A DNA stretch of 64,000 nucleotides from positions 320,656-384,655 of the forward strand of contig JAOPTT010000006.1 of NCBI GenBank assembly GCA_051531975.1, written 5' to 3'. Numbering within the stretch: the stretch's first letter is position 1; each line of letters starts with the position of its first letter. Positions 45,390 to 57,697 of this stretch are shown here, in pieces. This DNA is from Spirochaetaceae bacterium (GTDB lineage Bacteria > Spirochaetota > Spirochaetia > DSM-2461). The position numbers and the translations under genes are program-made. Under the pieces are notes generated by a model. The model was not told where the DNA came from, did no database searches, and saw only the letters and a program-made list of their open reading frames with translations.

Positions 45390-45944
45390 TTATGTAGAAA
45401 TAATGTGGTTCTTGAGTTTTTTATCTCTAAAATACTTATAGAAATCTATATTTTCAGTGAGTTCTGGGTGAAATGTTGTTACTAATATTCTATTATATTC
45501 AGCAGCAACAACTTCTCCATCATACATAGACAATATATCAACTTTCTTATCTACTTCTTTTATTTTAGGTGCTCTAATAAACTTAACTCTACATATTTTA
45601 TTTTGAAATTTTATATCAGTTATAAAGCTATTAGAATGGCTTCCATAACCGTTTCTTTGAACTTTAATATCTATTAGTTTTAAATGATTAGCTAATAAAA
45701 TTAAACCTGCACATGTACCCCATATAAACAATCCTTTATGATATTGATTAATAATAGCTCTATCTAAACCTTTAATTTTTAATATTTTAGCTAATGTGGT
45801 GCTTTCGCCTCCAGGAATTATAAGTCTAGAGATACCTTCTAGGTCTTGGGGGTCATTTACTAATCTGACTATATCACCCTGGGTTTCTATAACTGTAGAG
45901 TGTTCAAGGACTGAACCCTGAAGTGCCAAAACACCAATAATCAT
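45390..45944 (-). CDS. pdxT: PLP synthase glutaminase subunit
   Basis: GVLALQG, PGGESTT, GTCAG, FIRAP, FHPEL. Confidence 0.95.
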   Translation of the reverse strand: MIIGVLALQGSVLEHSTVIETQGDIVRLVNDPQDLEGISRLIIPGGESTTLAKILKIKGLDRAIINQYHKGLFIWGTCAGLILLANHLKLIDIKVQRNGYGSHSNSFITDIKFQNKICRVKFIRAPKIKEVDKKVDILSMYDGEVVAAEYNRILVTTFHPELTENIDFYKYFRDKKLKNHIIST

Positions 45945-46816
45945 TACCAGCCCCTTTTGGCAAATGTTGTTTTTACTTCAGAAGCCACAGTTGAATCCAT
46001 ACAATTACCTAGATCTTCAGAAACTTTTGCTAATAATTTAGGGTCATTAAAATATGCAACAGCTTCAACAATAGCTTTAGCTCTTTTTGCTGGATTATCA
46101 GATTTAAAAATACCTGAACCTACAAATACTCCATCGCAGCCTAGTTGCATCATTAGTGCTGCATCAGCAGGAGTTGCAATTCCACCAGCTGCAAAATTAA
46201 CAACAGGTAGTGTCCCCTTTTCTTTTATGCTTTTTACAAGTTCAAATGGTGCTTTAAAATCCCTTGCCAAGGTCATTAACTGCTCATTCGTAGAAGATAT
46301 TACCTTTTGAATATCAGAGGTCATCTGTCTCATATGCCTAACAGCCTCTACTACATCCCCGGTACCTGCTTCACCTTTTGTTCTAATCATTGAAGCACCT
46401 TCTCCAATTCTTCTTAATGCCTCACCAAGATCTCTTGCTCCACAAACAAAAGGAATTTTAAAATCAGTTTTATTTATATGATATTCTTCATCTGCGTAAG
46501 TTAAGACTTCACTTTCATCAACAAAATCTATTTCAATTGCTTCTAATATTTGTGCTTCAACAAAATGACCAATACGTACTTTAGCCATAACAGGAATTGT
46601 AACTGCATTTTGAATATCCCTAATCATTTTTGGATCAGACATTCTAGAAACGCCACCTTCTTTTCTAATGTCAGAAGGCACTCTCTCTAACGCCATTACA
46701 GCTACAGCCCCGGCTTCTTGGGCAATTATTGCTTGTTCAGGATTGATCACGTCCATAATCACACCACCTTTAAGCATTTTTGCAAGATCTTTATTTATTT
46801 CTACTCTTTCATTCAT
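45944..46816 (-). CDS. pdxS: PLP synthase lyase subunit
   Basis: [43 protein letters not shown]. Confidence 0.97.
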
Positions 46817-46950: not shown

Positions 46951-48333
46951 ATGAATAGCACAGATTTTTTTATAGATAAAACAAATGGCCCTCTTTATAT
47001 ACAATTATATGAAAACATCAGATCTAAAATATTAAAAAAGGATCTTTTAGATGGTGAAAAATTACCTACTATAAGGTCCTTGGCAATGGAACTTAAAGTA
47101 AATAATATTACTATTATTAATGCATACAAAAAACTTGAAGAAAATAATTTAGTAGAAAAAAAAGTAGGTAGTGGTTGTTTCGTAAAAAAAAGATCCCTGA
47201 GTTTCTCTACAAATATTATGGATCTTACTGGAACTGATTCTAATATTGATAATTTCCCATTACAAGACTTAAAAGATTCCATCAATTATGTTTTAAATAA
47301 TGATGGATTAGATGTTTTTAAATATGAGGATTCAAGAGGGAATTTTGAACTTAAACTTTGTCTAACTGAATATTTTAAGAAATATAATATTGATACAACA
47401 CCAGAACTTATTCAGATTGTTTCAGGGGGGCAGCAGGCTCTTGATATCATATCAAAATCTCTCATTGTATATGGAGAGACTGTTTTTACTGAAACCCCAA
47501 CATATAAAGGGGCAATTGATAGTTTTAAAAGCCGTGAAGCAAGAATTATAGATATTAATCTTGATGAAGATGGTATAAATATAAATGAGTTGGAAGCTAA
47601 ACTACAAATACGAAAACCATCATTAATTTATATCATGCCATTTAATCAGAAACCTACTGGGATAACCTATTCCCTAAAGAAGAAAAAAAAGTTAATAGAA
47701 CTAGCACACAGATACAATTTTTATATTATAGAAGATGATATGGGCAGTGAAATAGAGTTTAATAGAGAAGATTCATCAACTCTAAAGAGTCTAGATATAT
47801 ACGATCGAGTAATATACATAAAAAGTTTTACTCCTTTATTTATGCCTGGATTAAGGCTTGGTTGTTTAGTTGCCCCCAAAACTATTTACAATAAACTATT
47901 AAATTCTAAATTATCTACAGATATTTCTACTTCTGGACTTTTACAAAGAGCTTTCACGCATTATTTAACTAACTTTGATTGGCAAGATTATTACAATAAT
48001 CTCTCAAATGAATTGATGAAAAAGATAGATTTTGTAACAAACATTTTAAATCATGAGTTCTTAGATCTACTTGATTTTAATAATAATTCTATATCCACTA
48101 GTTTCTGGTTTAAATTAAAACTTGGAGATGGGGAAAAATTAGCTGAAATTTGTAACACTAATAACTTAAGGATAATTCCTGGTGCATATATGGGTGTCGA
48201 TTATACAAATTATTTTCGGATAAATTTAAATAGTATCCCCTACAAAAATATAAAAAAGGCTATGAATGTTTTAAAAAAATCTATAACTGATTTATATTTA
48301 ATAAAAAGAGAATCAAAAAATGACTTTTATTAG
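46951..48333 (+). CDS. pdxR: MocR/PdxR-type GntR regulator with aminotransferase-like domain
   Basis: LYIQL..KLPTIRSLA..AY..L wHTH; GGQQALD, IIEDD, PGLRLG; divergent from pdxST. Confidence 0.85.
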   Translation: MNSTDFFIDKTNGPLYIQLYENIRSKILKKDLLDGEKLPTIRSLAMELKVNNITIINAYKKLEENNLVEKKVGSGCFVKKRSLSFSTNIMDLTGTDSNIDNFPLQDLKDSINYVLNNDGLDVFKYEDSRGNFELKLCLTEYFKKYNIDTTPELIQIVSGGQQALDIISKSLIVYGETVFTETPTYKGAIDSFKSREARIIDINLDEDGININELEAKLQIRKPSLIYIMPFNQKPTGITYSLKKKKKLIELAHRYNFYIIEDDMGSEIEFNREDSSTLKSLDIYDRVIYIKSFTPLFMPGLRLGCLVAPKTIYNKLLNSKLSTDISTSGLLQRAFTHYLTNFDWQDYYNNLSNELMKKIDFVTNILNHEFLDLLDFNNNSISTSFWFKLKLGDGEKLAEICNTNNLRIIPGAYMGVDYTNYFRINLNSIPYKNIKKAMNVLKKSITDLYLIKRESKNDFY

Positions 48334-48391
48334 TAATTATTTGATAAAAATGTGTCAAATCTATATTTAATAATAATAATTACTAATAAAA
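48325..48391. promoter_or_regulatory. 17-bp perfect inverted repeat upstream of cydA
   Basis: ttttattagtaattatt (48325-48341) and aataattactaataaaa (48375-48391). Confidence 0.5.
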
Positions 48392-48455
48392 AATCAAAAA
48401 TATATTGTTAAAGATTAATATAAACATATATAATTGATTAAGAGGTTTAAAAAAT

Positions 48456-49610
48456 ATGGTAGAAATATTAAGTAGAATACAGTTTGCGTTTGCTATTGGT
48501 TTTCATTTTTTGTTTGTTCCACTGAGCATTGGTTTAATTTTTTTAGTTTGTATATATGAATTTTATCATTTAAAAACAAAAAATATTAAATACAAACATC
48601 TTTCTGAATTTTATGGAGATATGTTTGTAATTAATTATGCTTTTGGAATTGTTACAGGCTTTACTATGAGTTTGCAGTTTGGTACTAATTGGTCTGCATA
48701 TTCGATGTATATGGGAGATGTATTTGGTGCTCCATTGGTTATTGAAGCAATTATTGCATTCTTTTTAGAATCAACATTTACAGGTTTATGGATATTTAAA
48801 AAGAATAAAATGTCTGGAAGGCTTAGATTTATAACTGTTTTACTAATTTTTATAGGTACTAACTTCTCAGCATTATGGATTATAACAGCAAATGGTTTTA
48901 TGCAAAATCCGGTGGGTTATAAGATCGCCATTGATGGAAGTAGAATTTTAGTTGATAACTTCCGAGAGATAATATTTAATCCTTATGCTTGGTATATGTT
49001 AATACATAATAACTTATCTGCTATTTTACTTGGTGCTTATTTTGTCTTAGGTATTGGAGCATACAAGTATCTAAAATTAGATAAAGAAAGTGATGAAGCT
49101 AAAACTTTTGAAATGGGATTTAGGCCAGCGAATAAAATTTTAGTAGTTTCTGCTATTTTAATGCCTATAGTTGGTTATTCTTATTTTAACTATATAGTAC
49201 CAATTCAGCCTTTAAAAATTGATGCTGTAAGTGGTGGAAATCCTTTTGTTACAATTGCATTCGCTTTAATGGTTGGTTTAGGTACATTGTTTATTTTATA
49301 TTCAATTTATACTTTGGTTTTCTTTAAAAAGTATATGAAATCGCCAACTATGCAAAAGTTCTATTTATGGACATTTTTTCTCCCATACATTGCAATACTT
49401 TCTGGATGGGTAGTAGCGGAAGTTGGAAGACAACCATATGTTGTTTATGGTCTTATGTTAACTAAAGATGCTGTAAGTACGGTTCCAGTTATGCAGGTAT
49501 GGTTTTCTTTAATAACTATATTTGTTATGTATTTTATTTTAGCAGTGGGATGCATTTATCTACTTATTAAAAGAGTTAAAGCTCCTTTAATTAAAGAGGA
49601 GACAGTATGA
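48456..49610 (+). CDS. cydA: Cytochrome bd subunit I, Q-loop-deleted variant
   Basis: SRIQFA..FHFLFVPL, QFGTNWS, IEAIIAFFLES, ANGFMQNP, LIH, LMVGLG, GWVVAEVGRQP; only 384 aa. Confidence 0.93.
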   Translation: MVEILSRIQFAFAIGFHFLFVPLSIGLIFLVCIYEFYHLKTKNIKYKHLSEFYGDMFVINYAFGIVTGFTMSLQFGTNWSAYSMYMGDVFGAPLVIEAIIAFFLESTFTGLWIFKKNKMSGRLRFITVLLIFIGTNFSALWIITANGFMQNPVGYKIAIDGSRILVDNFREIIFNPYAWYMLIHNNLSAILLGAYFVLGIGAYKYLKLDKESDEAKTFEMGFRPANKILVVSAILMPIVGYSYFNYIVPIQPLKIDAVSGGNPFVTIAFALMVGLGTLFILYSIYTLVFFKKYMKSPTMQKFYLWTFFLPYIAILSGWVVAEVGRQPYVVYGLMLTKDAVSTVPVMQVWFSLITIFVMYFILAVGCIYLLIKRVKAPLIKEETV

Positions 49611-50614
49611 GTCACGAATTATTAGCAAATCTTTGGTATTATTTATTAGTATTAGTTTGGAGTATTTACATTAGTCAGGAACTTTTTGTAACTGGTGTTA
49701 GTATGTTAAGTATTAATTATAAAGTTGAAGATAAATCTTTCAAATTGATTAATGAATGTGTTGGAACTTTCTGGGATGGAATTCAAGTTTGGTTAATTGT
49801 TGCTATTGGTGGCTTGTTTGCAACCTTCCCTACAGCATATGGTTTAACTCTACAAGCTCTCTATATCCCATTTTATCTACTCTTAGTCGCTATTATATTT
49901 AGAGGAACATCCATTGAACTTATTTATAAATCTGATGATCCATTATGGCGGAAAGCTCTAAGTAAAATTTGGGTTATATCAAGTTTTCTTCTAATTTTTA
50001 TAGAAGGTGTTTATCTGGTTAACTTATTTATAGGTTTACCAATAAAAAACCAGCTAATGACAGAGAATTTTCTCACTATTTTTTCTAGAGCCACGTTATT
50101 AGGTGGACTTTTATTTACATTAACAGCTCTTTCTATGGGTTATACGTGGATAAAGTTAACCCTAGGAAAGGATTTTAAAACACCATCTAAAAAATCAATT
50201 TTATGGATAAGTGGTGCTATGGTTTTTGTTTGTACATTATTGTTTTTATCTTTAACAAATGAACATATAGTATTTGAATCAGGTCTATTTGCTGAATTAC
50301 CAGTTTTATGGATATTACCAATATCAGCAATGTTATTATTTTTGTTACAGTTTATTTTTCATTTATTTGAAAAATATGTTGTTGTATTTATTACAACTAT
50401 TCTAGGAATATCATTAGTACTTTTTACAGGTTTTAGTGCTTCTTTCCCATATATTTTACCATCAAATATTGATCCATCTGAAGGTATTAAAATAATAGAT
50501 GCCGCTGCTTCTGTTCATGCATTAGAAATTATTACAATTGTAGCTGCTATTTTCTTACCAGTTGTTATTGGTTATCAGACATGGAAGTATGTAAAATTTG
50601 GGAGAAAATTTTAG
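49607..50614 (+). CDS. cydB: Cytochrome bd subunit II
   Basis: FWDGIQVWLI..GGLFATFP..Y, IFRG..IE, FPYILPS, PVVIGYQTW. Confidence 0.9.
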   Translation: MSHELLANLWYYLLVLVWSIYISQELFVTGVSMLSINYKVEDKSFKLINECVGTFWDGIQVWLIVAIGGLFATFPTAYGLTLQALYIPFYLLLVAIIFRGTSIELIYKSDDPLWRKALSKIWVISSFLLIFIEGVYLVNLFIGLPIKNQLMTENFLTIFSRATLLGGLLFTLTALSMGYTWIKLTLGKDFKTPSKKSILWISGAMVFVCTLLFLSLTNEHIVFESGLFAELPVLWILPISAMLLFLLQFIFHLFEKYVVVFITTILGISLVLFTGFSASFPYILPSNIDPSEGIKIIDAAASVHALEIITIVAAIFLPVVIGYQTWKYVKFGRKF

Positions 50615-51760
50615 ATGAAAGTTATTACAAATAAATTACCTTTAAAACATATTTATGGTGATCTTGATAGTATGGTTTTAGATTTTGTTCGTATTCTTTA
50701 TGTATTAGCAGGTTTATCAATTATATTTAATTCAATTTACGATGTTGCTTTTGGTATTAAAGCAGTATTAATTATATTAGTAAGTATAATTGTATCTAGA
50801 GAGACAGAGATTTTCTTTTTAACTCAAAAATCTGATGTACCTAGAGCTGAAGCTAAAGAAGCAATTAAAATTACAAAACCTGAAGTTACAGGGATAATCT
50901 TTGCACTTCTACTACCTGTAGGTACACCAATATTTGTTGTTATTGTTGGTGCATTCATAAGTATTTTTGTTGGTAAGATGATTTTTGGTGGATATTCATT
51001 TAATGTATTTAACCCAGCGATTATTGGTAGACTTTTTGTAGGTATTGCATGGCCAGCTCTAGTAACTATTAATTTTCCTAATATTATGGATAACTACTTA
51101 TTAGGCCTAATTTTTAATAAGGATTATTCTATAGAATTATTATCTCCACTTATGATGTTACAAGAAAATGGAATAGTTTCATTATTAAATATGAATACTA
51201 TTAGCTCATTATTATTCAAACCAAATTTTGGTATGATGTTTTCTTTACCTAGTATAGTTTATCTTTTATTGATAGTTCACTTTACCGTTGGTAAGAAAAT
51301 TGATATGAAACCAATTTTATTTTCAATTTTGGCTTCTGTTATAGTTCTCGGAGTAATATCTATTGGTTTTAATCTAGGCATATATTATGTTTTATTTCAC
51401 TTTTTAACTGGTGGGTTTTTATTTGTAACTCTTTTTATGATGACGGATCCATTTACTAAACCATTTAATAGTATTGGAGTATTGTATTATTCAGTAATTT
51501 TTGTTTTTACTTTTACTTTAATAAGGTTTTTGGGAAAAGGCGCTGATGGTGTATTAAATGCTCTGTTATTTTCTAATCTTTTTGTTCCTTTATTAAATAA
51601 AAAAACTAAAGGGTTTGTATTTGGTTTAAATAAAAAAAGTATATTAGCAGTTGTAATTATGCTTCTAGTTCTTTTGGGTACTGGATTATTCATTAATTCA
51701 ATTCTAGGTTATAGAATTGAAGTTGGAGAAGTTATGGTGAATGCATATGTTAAAAGTTAG
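50615..51760 (+). CDS. rnfD: RnfD-like membrane subunit lacking the canonical flavinylation motif
   Basis: VTGIIFALLLP, KMIFGG..NVFNPAIIGR, FMMTDPFT, DGV..ALLFSNLFVPL. Confidence 0.85.
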   Translation: MKVITNKLPLKHIYGDLDSMVLDFVRILYVLAGLSIIFNSIYDVAFGIKAVLIILVSIIVSRETEIFFLTQKSDVPRAEAKEAIKITKPEVTGIIFALLLPVGTPIFVVIVGAFISIFVGKMIFGGYSFNVFNPAIIGRLFVGIAWPALVTINFPNIMDNYLLGLIFNKDYSIELLSPLMMLQENGIVSLLNMNTISSLLFKPNFGMMFSLPSIVYLLLIVHFTVGKKIDMKPILFSILASVIVLGVISIGFNLGIYYVLFHFLTGGFLFVTLFMMTDPFTKPFNSIGVLYYSVIFVFTFTLIRFLGKGADGVLNALLFSNLFVPLLNKKTKGFVFGLNKKSILAVVIMLLVLLGTGLFINSILGYRIEVGEVMVNAYVKS

Positions 51761-52286
51761 TTTAAAATATGGTGGGATTTTATTTATAACTGCAGTGATT
51801 TGTGCTTTTTGTGTTTCAGCAGTTTTTGTTATAGTTGAACCAATTATTATTGAAAGAACTATGGATAAAGTTAGAGAAAATTTAAATTATATTTTTTCTG
51901 GAACTAGTTTTGAATATAAAGATGTTTCTGGTGAATTTAATGCTTTAGATATTAAAAATGCAGATGCACTTTATAATGTTTCTTTAGAGAATGGAACTAC
52001 TAATTATGTTTATGAAATGAGTCCTGAGGGGCGAAATGATGAGATCCTGTTTTTAATTGCTTATGATAAAGATGGTAATGTTGTAAAAATACAATATGTT
52101 CAGATGCGTGAAACTAGAGGACGTGGAGATAAGATAACTAAAGATAACTATTTAGATAAAATATATAATCAAAATGCGTCTGATATGGATGTTGATATGA
52201 TAACAGGTGCTACATATTCTTCAGGTGCCATGAAACAAAGTATTGAAGATAGTTCAAACCACTTAATTAGTGAGGTTTTAAAATGA
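51741..52286 (+). CDS. rnfG: RnfG-like membrane-anchored FMN-binding protein
   Basis: N-terminal TM; ETRGRG; flavinylation motif DMITGATYSS. Confidence 0.87.
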   Translation: MHMLKVSLKYGGILFITAVICAFCVSAVFVIVEPIIIERTMDKVRENLNYIFSGTSFEYKDVSGEFNALDIKNADALYNVSLENGTTNYVYEMSPEGRNDEILFLIAYDKDGNVVKIQYVQMRETRGRGDKITKDNYLDKIYNQNASDMDVDMITGATYSSGAMKQSIEDSSNHLISEVLK

Positions 52287-52993
52287 AAAATTACGGTAAA
52301 GATTTATATCGTGGAATAGTGAAAGAGAACCCTACTTTTGTTCTATTTTTAGGAATGTGTCCTACTCTTGCATTAACAAATAACTTAACTAATGCAGTTG
52401 GAATGGGTTTGAGTGTTGTGGTTGTTTTAGCTATTACAAATACGATGATATCTCTTATTAGAAAAATAATTCCGGATGATATTCGTATCCCAGTTTATAT
52501 CACAGTCATTGCATCTGTAGTAACTATCTTAGGTATGTTAATGGAGGCTTATTTACCAGCTTTATTTGAGAGTCTAGGAATCTACTTACCTCTTATTGTT
52601 GTTAACTGTATCATTTTAGGTAGAGCTGAAGCATTTGCATCTCAAAATCCTGTTATGGATTCATTTATAGATGGAATATCAAGTGGATTAGGTTTTTTAC
52701 TTGGTCTCTCAACGTTAGCTTTTTTTAGAGAACTAATTGGTTCCGGTGCTGTTGAACTTCTTAAATTTAGATTAATAGATGCAAATCATGCACCAGTTAT
52801 CTTTATAGAATCATCAGGTGCTTTCTTAATGTTTGGTTTAATAGCGTGGATGATTAATACTATTAAAATAAATAAAGAAAAAGAAGCAAAAAGGGTTAAA
52901 GCTGAGTTCATAAAGCAAAAGATGGCAGAAGCAAAACTGAAAAAAGAACAATTTGAAAATGATAAATTGAAAAAGGCAGATGAAAATGAATAG
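52283..52993 (+). CDS. rnfE: RnfE subunit
   Basis: ENPTFVLFLGMCPTLA, IRIPVYI, PLIVVNCIILGRAEAFA. Confidence 0.93.
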   Translation: MKNYGKDLYRGIVKENPTFVLFLGMCPTLALTNNLTNAVGMGLSVVVVLAITNTMISLIRKIIPDDIRIPVYITVIASVVTILGMLMEAYLPALFESLGIYLPLIVVNCIILGRAEAFASQNPVMDSFIDGISSGLGFLLGLSTLAFFRELIGSGAVELLKFRLIDANHAPVIFIESSGAFLMFGLIAWMINTIKINKEKEAKRVKAEFIKQKMAEAKLKKEQFENDKLKKADENE

Positions 52994-53591
52994 TGTAGTA
53001 CAATTAGTAACAATAGCATTTAGTGCTTTTTTAATTCAAAACATAATACTTACTCAGTTTTTAGGTCTATGTTCATTTTTTGGAGTTGGAAATAAGGAAG
53101 AGTCTGCTTTAGGAATGGGACTTGCTGTTACATTTGTAATAACACTTTCTTCTATTGCAACTTATGCTCTGTATATATTTGTTTTAGTACCGTTTAAACT
53201 CGAATTTCTTTCAACAATATCCTTTATCTTAGTTGTAAGTGGTCTTGTTCAATTTGTAGAAATGGTCATAAAAAAATATGTTCCTGGTCTATATAAAAGT
53301 TTGGGAGTATACCTTCCTTTAATCACAACAAATTGTGCAGTTCTTGGTGTTGCACTGTTAAATATAGATAAAATAAATCCTGATGCGACTATGGGAATGA
53401 ATTTTCTGATGATGTTGTTATTTAGTTTTTTTACAGCATCTGGCTATGCTTTTGTAATCTACCTGTTTTCATTAATAAGAGAACAAATTGCTAAGACTCC
53501 AATTCATCCTGGGCTTAAAGGTGTACCTATTGCTTTAATTACTGCATTTGTAATGGCTATGGGGTTTAATGGCTTTGTAGGAATGTTTTAA
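52980..53591 (+). CDS. rnfA: RnfA subunit
   Basis: QFLGLC, GMGLAVTFV, LVQFVEM, LGVYLPLITTNCAVLG, KGVPIAL. Confidence 0.93.
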   Translation: MKMNSVVQLVTIAFSAFLIQNIILTQFLGLCSFFGVGNKEESALGMGLAVTFVITLSSIATYALYIFVLVPFKLEFLSTISFILVVSGLVQFVEMVIKKYVPGLYKSLGVYLPLITTNCAVLGVALLNIDKINPDATMGMNFLMMLLFSFFTASGYAFVIYLFSLIREQIAKTPIHPGLKGVPIALITAFVMAMGFNGFVGMF

Positions 53592-53773
53592 TGAGAATTA
53601 TAGTTGCTGCCTTAGTTGTATTAGCTCTTATTAGTTTTTATCTAATTATGTGGAAACTAAATAAGAAACAAAAGTTACCGGATGGAATTGAAGAGTCATT
53701 AAAGACATGCGATTCATGTGGTGAAAATGGGTGTGGACTACATCCTAATCAGAGAGGTAAAAATAATGAATAG
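53591..53773 (+). CDS. Small membrane-anchored Cys-rich protein
   Basis: TM helix plus CDSCGENGC; overlaps both rnfA and rnfB. Confidence 0.75.
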   Translation: MRIIVAALVVLALISFYLIMWKLNKKQKLPDGIEESLKTCDSCGENGCGLHPNQRGKNNE

Positions 53774-54068
53774 CATAATTATAAATGCAGTAGTGGTAAT
53801 TGGAGTTGTAGGTTTAATAATAGGCCTACTACTTGGAGTTGCGTCAATAATATTTGCAGTTAAAGTAGATGAACGTGTTAAAGCTGTTTACGATTTACTA
53901 CCCCATTTTAACTGTGGTTCTTGTGGATTTCCTGGATGTGCAGGAATGGCTCAAGGATTAGTAAATTCAGAGGTTCCAATTAGTAATTGTAAACCTTCTA
54001 AACCAGATGGTAAGCAGAAGATCAAAGAAGTATTAGATTCGTATGGTATAGAAAATAGATTATCATAA
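53766..54068 (+). CDS. rnfB: Minimal RnfB (TM anchor plus one Fe-S domain)
   Basis: ATG 53766 after gagagg; FAVKVDERV..LPHFNCGSCGFPGC...C; no ferredoxin repeats. Confidence 0.85.
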   Translation: MNSIIINAVVVIGVVGLIIGLLLGVASIIFAVKVDERVKAVYDLLPHFNCGSCGFPGCAGMAQGLVNSEVPISNCKPSKPDGKQKIKEVLDSYGIENRLS

Positions 54069-54086
54069 AATTAGTATATTATTAGT

Positions 54087-54117
54087 AACAGCACTTAATT
54101 ATTTAAGTGCTGTTTTT
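54087..54117 (+). terminator. Intrinsic terminator closing the cyd-rnf operon
   Basis: aacagcacttaa-ttat-ttaagtgctgtt followed by ttt. Confidence 0.88.
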
Positions 54118-54249
54118 ATTTATAATCAAAATTCGTAGTATTAAATAATTCATTTTTTATAGATTTTAATTTATATATAAAAATTTATCTTTTAATTCTT
54201 TATTTTTATATCGATATATATTATACTATTAGCATTAGGGAGCAAAAGT

Positions 54250-54405
54250 ATGAAAAATATTAAAAAAAGATTTAATGACTATTTAGAAAGACTAATTGTA
54301 ATCAACGAAAGAGAATTTGGACATGGAAGTTTGTCTTTATTAACTTTTAATAAAATTAATAAAAGATCAGGTAAGCTTAATTCTTTTTATAAACATCTAT
54401 TTTAA
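54250..54405 (+). CDS. Small protein (51 aa) below the ORF-track cutoff
   Basis: gggag SD; MKNIKKRFNDYLERLIVINEREFGHGSLSLLTFNKINKRSGKLNSFYKHLF. Confidence 0.45.
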   Translation: MKNIKKRFNDYLERLIVINEREFGHGSLSLLTFNKINKRSGKLNSFYKHLF

Positions 54406-55195
54406 AGTCACATTCAATATTCCACTCTTTCTGACTAATAAGGGTCTCAAAATTATTTTTTGATATTTTCCAACCAAATGGGGTCATATCTAAAAGATTT
54501 TGAACCATTTGGCCATCTCTTATATTCATTGTGTAGTGGAGGCTTTCTGAGTTTAATAATTTCAATGTTTTTGACTCGTCATTCTTTGTTGAAAGATTTA
54601 GAACCTCTTTGTAAATAATTTCTCTTAATTGGTATAAGTGTCTATTTCCAGGTGTTACCGTTATTAGATATCCATCTTTCTTAATAACTCTGTTTAGTTC
54701 TGTATCTGAAGATGGAGCGTAGATTCTATATAACAGATCTATACTATTATCTGCGACAGGCATTTCAAAAGCACTAGCAACACAGAAATTAACATCTTTA
54801 TATCTCTTAGAGCCATAACGGACAGCAACTTTGGATATATCTAAGGCTGAAATTATATAAGAGTTTGGTAATTGGTCTGCTAAAATTCCTGTATAATAAC
54901 CTTCACCACAACCTAAATCAAAAATATTAGGATTTTGTCTGTCTTTTAAAAGATCTATTATTAAATCTGTAATCTTTTCTACTAGAGGTTTGTAGTTATT
55001 TGATTCAAGGAATGATCTTCTTGCAAGTGTCATTTTACTATTATCACCAGGATCTTTTGTTTTTTTTGAGTTTATAGGCATAAGATTTACATAACCCTCT
55101 TTTGCCTTATCAAAACAATGTCTATTTATGCAAAGATAAGATCTGTCTACTATCTCTAATTTTTTTTTACAATTAGGGCATATAAATAGACTCAC
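54377..55195 (-). CDS. rlmA: 23S rRNA m1G745 methyltransferase
   Basis: CPNC...C..HCFD.AKEGYVNL, PGD...M..ARR.FL, DLGCGEGYY. Confidence 0.92.
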   Translation of the reverse strand: MSLFICPNCKKKLEIVDRSYLCINRHCFDKAKEGYVNLMPINSKKTKDPGDNSKMTLARRSFLESNNYKPLVEKITDLIIDLLKDRQNPNIFDLGCGEGYYTGILADQLPNSYIISALDISKVAVRYGSKRYKDVNFCVASAFEMPVADNSIDLLYRIYAPSSDTELNRVIKKDGYLITVTPGNRHLYQLREIIYKEVLNLSTKNDESKTLKLLNSESLHYTMNIRDGQMVQNLLDMTPFGWKISKNNFETLISQKEWNIECDFKIDVYKKN

Positions 55196-56205
55196 TCTGA
55201 TATACCGTATAGTGTTATTTTATTCTCTTTTCCTCTAAGTTCCTGATCATTATACTCTTCTACTTTGATATTTTGAGGGATAGATATACTTTTATATAAC
55301 TCTTCAGATATTAGAAAAGACTCGTTTAGTTTTCCACATTGACTTTCTATTCTTGCAGTTGTATTTAAAACATCACCCATGTAAGAGATCTCTTTTTTTA
55401 AGTTACCTATTTCTCCTGTAACAACAATACCACCGTGTATACCGGCTTTAAACTCAGGGAATATTCCATATTTTTTTAGATAATAATTTTTTCTTTTTCC
55501 TACTGACTTTTTTATTTGAAAGAAACAACTTAAACAACTGGCATTTTTTATCCCTTTGTTAAAGTTCCAGCAGATAATTGCCTCATCACCAACATATTTA
55601 TATATTTCACCCTTTGAATACAGAACCGGAGCCGATAGGTCAAAAAAGAAATCATTTATAAATGACATGAATTTTAGGTGACCAAGTTTTTCTGCAATAG
55701 TTGTTGATGATTTAACATCTATGAACATGAATATTTTCTTTTCTTCTCTTGGGGTTCTATATCTACCAAATATGATTTTCATTAATACTCCTTTACCAAG
55801 AAGTGAGTTAATCATGATTAAAGATATGAAAAGAAACGTTAATAATATAGAAAATCTAAAACCTCTAAAAAATGCTGATTCATTTATAATATCAGAGAAT
55901 GACATTCCATTAACAATAGAGTTTGTAGTTAATACAACTATAAAAATTGATGAGTAAGATATAACTTTAATGAACAGTAGAGGAAGAAATTTTAGCTTGG
56001 AAGTTGAGTTGTCCAGTATTGTCACTTCAAGAATATTAATTGAAGATCCTATAACAAGCCCAGTCAATCCTCCAGATACTAAAGTTAATAAACTCAAGTT
56101 TTCAAAAAAATTATAAATGGTGAAGGATAAACCTCCAATAAAAGATGATATTCCTACAATTATAATCATTTTTATTCTATGTTTTGTAATTTCATTTATT
56201 ACCAT
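55192..56205 (-). CDS. Membrane-bound class III adenylate/guanylate cyclase
   Basis: About four TM helices; FMFIDVKSST, YKYVGDE, GDVLNTTARIE, LRGK. Confidence 0.9.
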   Translation of the reverse strand: MVINEITKHRIKMIIIVGISSFIGGLSFTIYNFFENLSLLTLVSGGLTGLVIGSSINILEVTILDNSTSKLKFLPLLFIKVISYSSIFIVVLTTNSIVNGMSFSDIINESAFFRGFRFSILLTFLFISLIMINSLLGKGVLMKIIFGRYRTPREEKKIFMFIDVKSSTTIAEKLGHLKFMSFINDFFFDLSAPVLYSKGEIYKYVGDEAIICWNFNKGIKNASCLSCFFQIKKSVGKRKNYYLKKYGIFPEFKAGIHGGIVVTGEIGNLKKEISYMGDVLNTTARIESQCGKLNESFLISEELYKSISIPQNIKVEEYNDQELRGKENKITLYGISE

Positions 56206-57697
56206 TGTAGTCCTTTAAAAAATATGAATGATTTGCATTAAATATAGGAGGTGTCCTATTCAGGATCTCTTTAATATAAATATTTGATTTAAATTCTTTT
56301 TTAAAAAAGTTTCTAACATCTTTTCTATTCCAACCTTTTGGGTGGTTAAAACCGGAATATAAACTTAAGTCCGCATCTGAAAACTTATATGTCTCTTGCT
56401 CTCTAGCTATATCGCTATCTATTGGAAGATTAAAAATAGCCATATTTAAGTATGTTACATATTTATGATACTTAATAATAAAGTTCATAGTTTTTTTTGC
56501 AGATAAATAATCTTCTGTTGGAGTTCCAAATAGCAGATAGATAAATGTCTCTATACCGGCCTCTTTAAGGTTTTCTAGAATTATTATTACATCTTCAAGG
56601 TGAATACCTTTATTCATGTTATCAAGAACGTTTTGATCCCCAGACTCTAATCCAAGTTTTAACATGTAACAGCCCTTTGTTTTTAATAGCTTACAGAAGT
56701 TTTTATCTTTTAAATGAGAGTAAAACTTAGTAAAACCGTACCAGGGTATTTTATTCTCTGATTGTGAAATTGCATTCAGTACAGATGGATTAATTTCGTT
56801 ATCAAGAAAATGAAATAGGGCTGGATTATATCTACGTGTTAGGTAATCCATTTCCTCTAAAACATGTGGTGTCTTTTTAGATATAAACGGGTTATCCTCT
56901 GCTTTTTCAGGGCAGAACGTACATTTTTTCCAACTGCAACCTAATGAGCCGCTAATAGGTATGATCTTCCCAGGGCTGAAATAACTATAATCATCTGTAA
57001 AATCATAATCAGGCTTCAATGATTGTAGTTTATTTTTATCTGGGATCACATTAAGATACTCTAATAGTTGAATCTCTCCAGGACCTATCATTATTTTATC
57101 AATAATACCGGAAAATGGATCAAGCCAGTGGGGAGATTTTGCCCATGAAGTTATTAAACCACCACCTAAAACTATTTTGATATTTGAGTAGTTATCTTTT
57201 AAATATCCGATTAGTGCAAATGTAGATACTGCCTGATTCAGATATTGAAGTGATATACCAATTGTATCTGTTGGGTTTGTTTCTAAAATCTGTGGGATTC
57301 TTTTTGTATAATAATCATAAAAAGGATTTTTTTTATATTCTCTTGCTGCTTTTATCAGGTCATTGCTTTTTAAGGCATCAAAGTCTCTGCTAATATAATT
57401 GGCTAGAGTTATAGATGTATTGCTATTCAGGGTATCGTTTAAACCTTTAGTTAATTCGTTAATAACTTTTATATAAGTATCAAAGTTTTTATAACCATCT
57501 TTTGACTGAATTAAGTCTCTGTTATGTTCTTTTTTAGGGTGTTTTTCGAAATACCTATTTAAAAGAAATTCCTGACCTTCGTAGTTCATGTCTACGATTT
57601 TATATGGGATATTGTGTGCTTTTAAAGCACCACCTAAAATAGGTAAGCCACCTGGGGGTTCACATGCTTTAGCCACCGGTGGGAATATTAATAACAT
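56192..57697 (-). CDS. B12-binding-domain radical SAM protein
   Basis: LIFPP N-terminus, IVLGGG, CSWKKCTFC, GLESG, YLLFGTPTE. Confidence 0.85.
   Translation of the reverse strand: MLLIFPPVAKACEPPGGLPILGGALKAHNIPYKIVDMNYEGQEFLLNRYFEKHPKKEHNRDLIQSKDGYKNFDTYIKVINELTKGLNDTLNSNTSITLANYISRDFDALKSNDLIKAAREYKKNPFYDYYTKRIPQILETNPTDTIGISLQYLNQAVSTFALIGYLKDNYSNIKIVLGGGLITSWAKSPHWLDPFSGIIDKIMIGPGEIQLLEYLNVIPDKNKLQSLKPDYDFTDDYSYFSPGKIIPISGSLGCSWKKCTFCPEKAEDNPFISKKTPHVLEEMDYLTRRYNPALFHFLDNEINPSVLNAISQSENKIPWYGFTKFYSHLKDKNFCKLLKTKGCYMLKLGLESGDQNVLDNMNKGIHLEDVIIILENLKEAGIETFIYLLFGTPTEDYLSAKKTMNFIIKYHKYVTYLNMAIFNLPIDSDIAREQETYKFSDADLSLYSGFNHPKGWNRKDVRNFFKKEFKSNIYIKEILNRTPPIFNANHSYFLKDYNGNK

Follow-up and report, generated by a model that had tools for sequence, protein, structure and literature searches.

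Cytochrome bd counts as a quinol oxidase, yet fermenting bacteria without quinones, such as some spirochaetes and Izemoplasma-like bacteria, possess it too. Here, we describe an operon in which the genes for both subunits of such an oxidase are joined to those for half of an Rnf complex. It lies in a stretch of 64,000 nucleotides (nt) from a Spirochaetaceae bacterium (GTDB lineage Bacteria; Spirochaetota; Spirochaetia; DSM-2461; assembly GCA_051531975.1, contig JAOPTT010000006.1, positions 320,656 to 384,655 of the forward strand), which will be called the window. The genes run in the order cydA', cydB', rnfD', rnfG', rnfE', rnfA', a gene for a 60-amino-acid (aa) cysteine (Cys) protein, and rnfB', the prime marking members of this family. 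By its subunits, the system appears to be assembled from two known machines, a bd oxidase and an Rnf half-module. We estimate, with a probability of about 0.6, that the operon encodes one membrane machine, a quinone-independent donor:O2 oxidoreductase, in which electrons would run from RnfB' via RnfA'/RnfE' and the flavin mononucleotide (FMN) of RnfG' to heme b558 and finally to O2.

In the Rnf complex, electrons pass from RnfB to the iron-sulfur (Fe-S) center of RnfA/RnfE, then to the FMN of RnfG, which acts as a moving shuttle, and onward through RnfD-FMN and riboflavin to RnfC, as set out in PMC12174285. The operon in the window resembles the solved Rnf complexes (7zc6, 8ahx, and 9eri) in that homologous D, G, E, A, and B subunits occur in the same order, with the Cys residues of A/E and the flavinylation site of RnfG, but it differs in having no RnfC in the operon, an RnfD' without the flavinylation motif and with extra terminal helices, an RnfB' with one cluster, and cydAB at its head. 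The motif, [S/T]GA[S/T], is given by Meheust et al. (2021, eLife, PMC8238504), who also report multi-flavinylated RnfG-type proteins and partial NQR/RNF systems that move electrons one way. The idea behind the latter is the same, half of the core being used for a one-way flow from the cytosol to extracytosolic FMN; however, those systems are defined by an NqrB/RnfD protein fused to an NqrF-like NAD-binding domain, whereas here the B, A/E, and G half is retained and a bd oxidase would take up the electrons. In Pfam, RnfD' matches PF03116 alone, with no NqrF-type NAD-binding domain (PF00175) fused to it.

On the oxidase side, two families of the bd superfamily, OR-C and OR-N, have a subunit I without a quinol site and use alternative donors (Murali et al., 10.1101/2021.01.16.426971), and they provide a precedent in concept for quinol-independent bd enzymes. 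CxxCH heme c motifs are present in OR-C and absent from the CydA' sequence. OR-N is described as having 10-14 helices and often CydA-like partners, in contrast to the nine helices modelled for CydA' and the true CydB found here. A linkage between bd and Rnf was not found described in the full-text literature searched, most subscription papers and supplements lying outside its scope: the word "Rnf" has no occurrence in the accessible text of Murali et al., nor has "cytochrome bd" in that of Meheust et al. or of a 2025 RNF/NQR review. Papers on Izimaplasma/Izemoplasma either mention the bd oxidase and Rnf complexes next to each other or take a quinone pool for granted (PMC6256511, PMC8397711).

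The best matches of the oxidase in both sequence and fold are E. coli CydAB and AppCB (6rko, 7ose, and 7oy2), with which it shares all heme-ligand and proton-channel residues and a genuine CydB. CydA' scores 368.3 bits against PF01654 (Pfam cut-off 26.2). In the whole-genome scan this profile covers the protein in two stretches, leaving profile positions ~250-310 unmatched, and the alignment with E. coli CydA and AppC extends over residues 7-258 and resumes at 388-497. Counted along this alignment and in a family alignment of 24 members, H17, E97, E105, H184, M272, E322, and R325 of CydA' correspond to E. coli His19, Glu99, Glu107, His186, Met393, Glu445, and Arg448, of which we take His186, Met393, and Glu445 to be heme-ligand residues. 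All seven, as well as K254 (the equivalent of Lys252), are invariant in 24/24 family members. The roles of Lys252, Glu257, Glu99, Glu107, and His19 are named by Murali et al. What separates CydA' from the E. coli bd-I and bd-II enzymes is the Q-loop, which has ~130 residues in those enzymes and ~10 in CydA', and the loss of Glu257, whose equivalent is replaced at a position that is unconserved in the family. Across the CydA' clade, the loop between transmembrane helices (TM) 6 and 7 has 8-20 residues, as opposed to ~70 or more in ordinary relatives, where the sequence QPxKxAAxE..WET is followed by ~70 residues.

An AlphaFold model of CydA' built from the family alignment (mean predicted confidence, pLDDT, 88.7) has the ordinary nine-helix CydA fold, with a ten-residue helix alone separating TM6 from TM7. 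Superposition of this model on ten CydA chains of known structure gave query-normalized TM-scores of 0.85-0.92, the best being E. coli bd-II (7oy2_C, 0.92). CydB' scores 187 bits against PF02322 and 151.9 bits against TIGR00203, above the cut-off of 117.3. The invariant heme and proton-channel residues, the confident fold, and the loop of 8-20 residues together argue that CydA' has kept intact its O2-reducing machinery and heme b558 and has lost the quinol-binding lid, so that the predicted quinol site is gutted, though not fully erased. A quinol oxidase is expected to carry a Q-loop site with both Lys252 and Glu257; in CydA', the Lys is present, the Glu is replaced, and the loop is shortened. 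The claim of the original prediction, an analysis of the window from its letters alone, that CydA has no quinol site therefore stands as far as the Q-loop and the Glu257 equivalent are concerned and falls short at the Lys252 equivalent, which is kept.

The same prediction proposed a search for the arrangement in other genomes and a test of whether loss of the Q-loop goes with it, and we observed both the recurrence and the association. Metagenome contigs were scanned with a sub-alignment of the CydA'-specific stretch, which yielded 80 loci, and these were annotated by BLAST of stop-to-stop open reading frames (ORFs) against the proteins of the window and the canonical Rnf proteins of the same genome. 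Loci with at least 900 nt after cydB were considered testable, and CydA was called short if complete and of 410 aa or less. Complete short CydA' was present in 13 loci, and in 10/10 of the testable ones rnfD' follows cydB immediately; complete long CydA was present in 38 loci, and rnf follows cydB in 0/29 of those that were testable. The remaining 29 loci, in which cydA is cut or incompletely aligned, were set aside, with rnfD' still seen in three of them (L151, L162, and L170), and L153, which encodes a complete short CydA' with just 761 nt downstream, has rnfD' too. Seven of the 10 rnf-positive short loci have the order D'G'E'A'B' and three a variant order. As a control, we used 80 genome loci with ordinary CydA, taken from among the matches listed from a profile search with the full CydA' alignment; among these matches, rnf follows cydB in 0/69 testable loci, and no rnf ORFs were found in the flanks of any of the 80.

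A quick maximum-likelihood tree built from 66 CydA rows unites all 14 true short forms, that of the window included, in one clade with a Shimodaira-Hasegawa-like (SH-aLRT) support of 93, two other "short" rows being fragments. The sister of this clade is a pair with a CydA of 416-417 aa, a loop of half length, and no rnf, followed by a group of 454-465 aa, also without rnf. The pair (L160:7617-9891 and L169:116-2384) lies on high-GC contigs with no rnf genes nearby and lacks the Glu257 equivalent, and its bd oxidase may not use quinol either.

A congener, G021, has all eight genes in the same order. The ratio of nonsynonymous to synonymous substitution rates (dN/dS) between the two genomes is 0.03-0.15 for all eight, values that are rough because dS is saturated (1.5-3.7). 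From these ratios it follows that the genes are maintained by selection, and, together with the invariant key residues, they rule out the relaxed selection or gene decay that would have spoken against the original prediction. The operon is real, conserved, and maintained by selection.

It is also widespread but patchy. CydA' has many relatives of 380-436 aa and 50-84% identity, with a taxonomic range that rests on few named matches: Thiospirochaeta perfilievii, which is the closest, Candidatus Izimaplasma HR1, and a Mycoplasmatales metagenome-assembled genome (MAG). An RnfD' orthologue is found in 2/38 genomes of the window's own order, namely, the window's genome and G021, all other matches having 34% identity or less. 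When 401 sampled genomes of the phylum were searched with the RnfD' profile, a score of ~500 bits was reached in the window's genome alone; the runner-up, at 184 bits, is an ordinary RnfD or NqrB. At E <= 1e-40, the profile matched 0/401 genomes from the class of a Bacillales MAG, a sample that probably includes few or no Izemoplasma-like genomes. The 150 best matches among 50%-identity representatives comprise ~25 clusters of motif-less RnfD'. This patchy distribution suggests older horizontal transfer. Recent transfer into the window's genome is not suggested by composition, the GC content of the operon region (27-32%) being similar to that of the remainder of the window. Many other RnfD homologues (P0206-P0340, 450-990 aa) have the canonical flavinylation motif and C-terminal FMN-binding repeats, of which P0206 has four, and resemble the multi-flavinylated systems of Meheust et al.

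Of the five Rnf-type subunits, four fall under their NCBIfam cut-offs. RnfD' scores 149 bits against PF03116 and 126.6 bits against TIGR01946, under the cut-off of 207. A flavinylation motif of the form [ST][GSA][AS][TS] occurs nowhere in RnfD', as had been predicted, nor in any of the 12/12 standard-type members; in its place, RnfD' and its standard-type relatives share a family-specific segment, xDNYLLxLIF. The canonical RnfD of the same genome carries LDGVTGATPLG. The model of RnfD' (pLDDT 85.4) has the RnfD/NqrB fold, to which residues 340-369 add a further helix at the C-terminus; among solved structures, it matches 9eri_D, 8ahx_D, and 7zc6_D best.

RnfG' (PF04205, 47.8 bits) retains the flavinylation motif as DMITGATYS, and the acceptor Ser/Thr is present at the aligned site in 10/10 family members, with a complete D-x-x-x-G-A-[ST] in 8/10. 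RnfE' (PF02508, 210 bits) is above the cut-off of TIGR01948 at 230 bits, and RnfA' (PF02508, 168 bits) scores 213 bits against TIGR01943, under the cut-off of 229. The Cys ligands of the Fe-S center (C26 and C109 in RnfE', C31 and C119 in RnfA') are present in every complete standard-type E' and A' and in the canonical paralogues, the RnfA' of L093 being cut before the second Cys site. RnfB' consists of an N-terminal membrane helix and one 4Fe-4S domain (PF04060, 45.7 bits) and lacks the ferredoxin-like poly-cluster domains; TIGR01944 gives 67.2 bits against a cut-off of 68.7 and matches only over profile positions 4-89 of 190. In 8/8 members RnfB' has 92-110 aa, with a common NCGxCGxPGC...CKP and four conserved Cys residues, as compared with 277 aa in the canonical RnfB. 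The input arm from B through A/E to G, which was predicted to be kept, is thus kept at the RnfG' site and the RnfA'/RnfE' ligands, but RnfB' is truncated to one cluster domain.

Outside the operon, the genome, which is 98.5% complete, holds a complete canonical rnfCDGEAB with normal features on another contig, C18, and its rnfC is the only one above the family cut-off. The original prediction that RnfC is missing consequently applies to the operon and the window and not to the genome. The gene cydA' is the only cydA. A search for apbE, cydDC, and quinone genes had also been proposed: there is one ApbE flavin transferase, 18 kb downstream of the operon; no match to CydD reaches the cut-off (best 276 bits against 435); and, of the quinone pathway, MenA, MenD, and MenG stay under their cut-offs and MenB and MqnA are unmatched. 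MenA was not found in G021 either. In contrast to the E. coli bd-I and bd-II quinol oxidases, then, the oxidase lies in a genome in which neither CydDC nor a recognizable quinone pathway was found.

A second architecture is found in L132, L140, L141, and L151 (e.g., L140:2284-10895), where cydA'B' is followed by a gene for a fusion of RnfD' with FMN-binding domains, by E' and A', and then by nqrB-C-D-E-like genes; in L140, the sole locus scanned for it, an NqrF-like gene with Fer2, FAD_binding_6, and NAD_binding_1 domains comes after these. Between one and four FMN-binding domains, each containing a D..xGAT motif, are fused to the variant D'. All four Cys residues are lost from the variant E' and A', whereas the downstream NqrD/E-like pair retains them. 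Compared with Na+-NQR (NqrABCDEF), the subunits of the window are homologous to NqrB, NqrC, NqrD, and NqrE, but NqrF and NqrA are absent from it; in the variant loci there is no RnfB', NqrA was likewise not seen, and the acceptor Thr is missing from the NqrB-like subunit. The variant operon seems to be the same machine fed with NADH. On this comparison of gene content, the cytoplasmic input module is interchangeable, and the conserved core consists of CydA'B', D'E'A', and FMN domains on the outer face. Such a core, common to both architectures, fits a role of D'E'A' as docking scaffold and of periplasmic FMN as the donor to heme b558, and the variant loci independently suggest that the periplasmic FMN domains may be the point at which electrons enter CydA'.

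In nine Izemoplasma-like loci (L127, L128, L129, L131, L134, L137, L143, L154, and L157; e.g., L129:6814-7446), cydA' is immediately preceded, on its own strand, by a gene that encodes a ~210-aa membrane protein. This protein is similar to the ferric-reductase/MsrQ type, with 34.9 bits against PF01794 in L129 and 22.6 bits, under the cut-off of 28, in L137, and no homologue of it was found in the window's genome.

The machine that we propose would work as follows. A reduced cytoplasmic carrier, probably ferredoxin or flavodoxin, would reduce the single 4Fe-4S cluster of the truncated RnfB'. The electron would then cross the membrane via the Cys-ligated Fe-S center of RnfA'/RnfE' and arrive at the covalent FMN of RnfG' on the outer face. 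Instead of returning through the FMN of RnfD and RnfC, it would pass to heme b558 of CydA', the outer face of which would be uncovered by the deletion of the Q-loop, and hemes b595 and d would reduce O2 to water with protons from the retained cytoplasmic channel. The flavin-less RnfD' would act as a scaffold, keeping the Rnf half in place on CydA'B', and might also offer a path for ions. With the return half disabled (an RnfD' without FMN and no RnfC in the operon) and heme b558 uncovered, the path to b558 is the most economical reading. Gene anatomy, residue conservation, co-occurrence, purifying selection, and the lack of recognizable quinone genes were observed directly; from these, we infer the physical association of the two halves, the step from FMN to b558, the entry of electrons from a cytoplasmic carrier and their delivery to O2, as well as any coupling to Na+ or H+. 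The original prediction is partly supported: its computational predictions all came out in its favor, and its central claim, that RnfG'-FMN would hand electrons directly to heme b558 in a single complex, stands as a proposal.

A more ambitious version, which we put forward only tentatively, is a respiratory chain within a single complex, in which ferredoxin (or NADH in the NqrF variant) would be oxidized in the cytoplasm, Na+ or H+ pumped as electrons move outward along the Fe-S and FMN wire of the Rnf/Nqr part, and O2 reduced by the Q-loop-less bd oxidase docked on RnfD', with no quinone involved.

Several observations weigh against a quinone-independent machine and should be kept in mind. 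K254 lies in a QPxK motif at the start of the Q-loop and is invariant in 24/24 members, so that a residual site for quinol or another small molecule may persist there. The genome encodes a distant MenA-like prenyltransferase of the UbiA family (C1:111872-112786; 105 bits against cut-offs of at least 239, and 58.6 against 102 for TIGR00751), the only menaquinone-type gene detected, which could act on scavenged naphthoquinone precursors. The RnfG' motif is degraded in 2/10 members, to ADAS in L130 and ASVS in L170. Heme supply is a further difficulty, given that HemB was found, HemE stays under its cut-off, and no ferrochelatase was found in the genome; the source of hemes b and d may be uptake or a siroheme-type route. 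Lastly, the saturated dS makes the selection estimates rough, the CydA tree comes from a quick search whose careful run is unfinished, and a search of proteins of 588-2000 aa for natural fusions between CydB' and Rnf subunits gave none, which is a weak argument.

The invariant K254 and QPxK and the MenA-like gene would both be at home in a mini-chain of two enzymes, in which the RnfC-less module is a donor:quinone reductase, RnfD' takes over the quinone-binding role of NqrB, and CydA'B' is a quinol oxidase with a minimal Lys site, the quinone being scavenged or made by an unrecognized route. Quinone does bind NqrB, the homologue of RnfD, in Na+-NQR (PMC12174285), and the Izemoplasma papers assume a quinone pool for the bd oxidase (PMC8397711). 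We nevertheless regard this arrangement as unlikely. The Glu257 equivalent and almost the entire Q-loop are lost, the covalent FMN from which the riboflavin/quinone side is normally fed is missing from RnfD', as the acceptor Thr is from the variant NqrB-like subunit, and the quinone genes searched for are under their cut-offs or unmatched in a genome that is 98.5% complete, with no MenA in G021; moreover, the constant pairing of Q-loop loss with rnf linkage would go unexplained. The same assembly might alternatively have another job, either as a heme-based outlet that detoxifies peroxide, nitric oxide, or similar oxidants or as a pure O2 scavenger that conserves no energy. The hosts look like anaerobes or aerotolerant fermenters, and the organism with the closest named CydA', T. 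perfilievii, was described under a title that reads "oxygen-tolerant, sulfide-oxidizing..." (reference list of PMC7380536); in addition, if electrons and protons both come from the cytoplasm, no net charge would be separated by the bd part, which by itself would then contribute nothing to the membrane potential. A job other than O2 reduction sits poorly with the fact that every O2-site and proton-channel residue is invariant, as expected of a working O2 reductase, and we consider this group of functions improbable to a similar degree as the mini-chain. Least of all do we favor a linkage that is regulatory or incidental, with RnfD'G'E'A'B' and an RnfC from elsewhere forming a second ferredoxin:NAD+ oxidoreductase while CydA'B' acts alone. 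A canonical rnfC does exist in the genome, and "two Rnf complexes" are counted for Izimaplasma genomes, with nothing added on the point, in PMC6256511, but the FMN needed for transfer toward RnfC is missing from RnfD' in 12/12 members, the ferredoxin-like domains are missing from RnfB' in 8/8, and the canonical operon already supplies a full set of D, G, E, A, and B. The variant E' and A' have no Fe-S ligands whatsoever, and the distribution of rnf beside Q-loop-less CydA' (10/10, as against 0/29 in long loci and 0/69 among the matches listed) also speaks against this explanation, which we consider highly improbable.

The layout of the operon is given in Table 1. The eight genes occupy 48456-54068 on the + strand, and each overlaps or abuts the next; the gene order and junctions of the original prediction were borne out by ORF calls and by Pfam and NCBIfam matches, and its terminator at 54087 by a hairpin scan, which found no other terminator-like site within 48200-54300. 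There is no rnfC or cydDC within the 64-kb window, also as predicted. For rnfB', the longest ORF has a GTG start at 53718. The promoter scan overall gave no excess of sites over shuffled sequence, which makes the site upstream of cydA' weak evidence.

Table 1. Genes and putative regulatory sites of the operon (positions in nt, counted from the first letter of the window).
Feature	Position	Strand	Description
promoter-like site upstream of cydA'	48405..48434	+	TTGTTA-18-TATAAT, 10/12 matches
cydA'	48456..49610	+	384 aa, cytochrome bd subunit I, Q-loop reduced to ~10 residues
cydB'	49607..50614	+	335 aa, cytochrome bd subunit II; 4-nt overlap with cydA'
rnfD'	50615..51760	+	381 aa, divergent membrane subunit of the RnfD/NqrB family; abuts cydB'
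rnfG'	51741..52286	+	181 aa, membrane-anchored FMN-binding subunit; 20-nt overlap with rnfD'
rnfE'	52283..52993	+	236 aa; 4-nt overlap with rnfG'
rnfA'	52980..53591	+	203 aa; 14-nt overlap with rnfE'
60-aa Cys protein	53591..53773	+	one transmembrane helix, C-x2-C-x4-C tail; 1-nt overlap with rnfA'
rnfB'	53766..54068	+	~100 aa, likeliest start ATG 53766; 8-nt overlap with the 60-aa gene
intrinsic-terminator-like hairpin and T run	54087..54114	+	12-bp stem, 4-nt loop, then TTTATTTATA

The 60-aa Cys protein is confined to a spirochaete subclade, with orthologues in L126 and G021 (55% identity, dN/dS 0.09). It has no NCBIfam match and no Pfam match to an E-value of 0.05, except DUF4083 at 0.033. 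Its language-model neighbors are clusters named "FeoB-associated Cys-rich membrane protein" (0.92-0.93), which should be taken as a lead only. The idea of a maturation factor of the NqrM type received no profile support.

Immediately upstream of cydA' is the gene for a PdxR-type MocR regulator (46951-48333, + strand), which is divergent from a pdxS-pdxT pair (45944-46816 and 45390-45944, both on the - strand) and probably controls the pdx genes and not the oxidase operon. Downstream, at 55192-57697 on the - strand, a membrane-anchored protein with an adenylate/guanylate cyclase domain (337 aa) is encoded beside a B12-binding radical SAM protein (501 aa) that has weak similarity to PhpK-type methyltransferases.

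The operon offers a concrete, testable answer to the question of how fermenters without quinones feed a bd oxidase. If the proposed path from RnfG'-FMN to heme b558 is true, it would represent a new mode of electron input for the bd superfamily and a new output for the Rnf/Nqr core, and the two architectures, with input by RnfB' or by NqrF, would constitute a natural experiment on how that core can be rewired. Organisms that are now classed as strict anaerobes may then possess a means of oxygen tolerance or of micro-aerobic energy gain. Should the single-complex chain also prove true, it would establish a new class of terminal oxidase supercomplexes that conserve energy, and supposedly "strict" fermenters, among them marine spirochaetes and bacteria of the Izemoplasma-like kind, could respire traces of O2.

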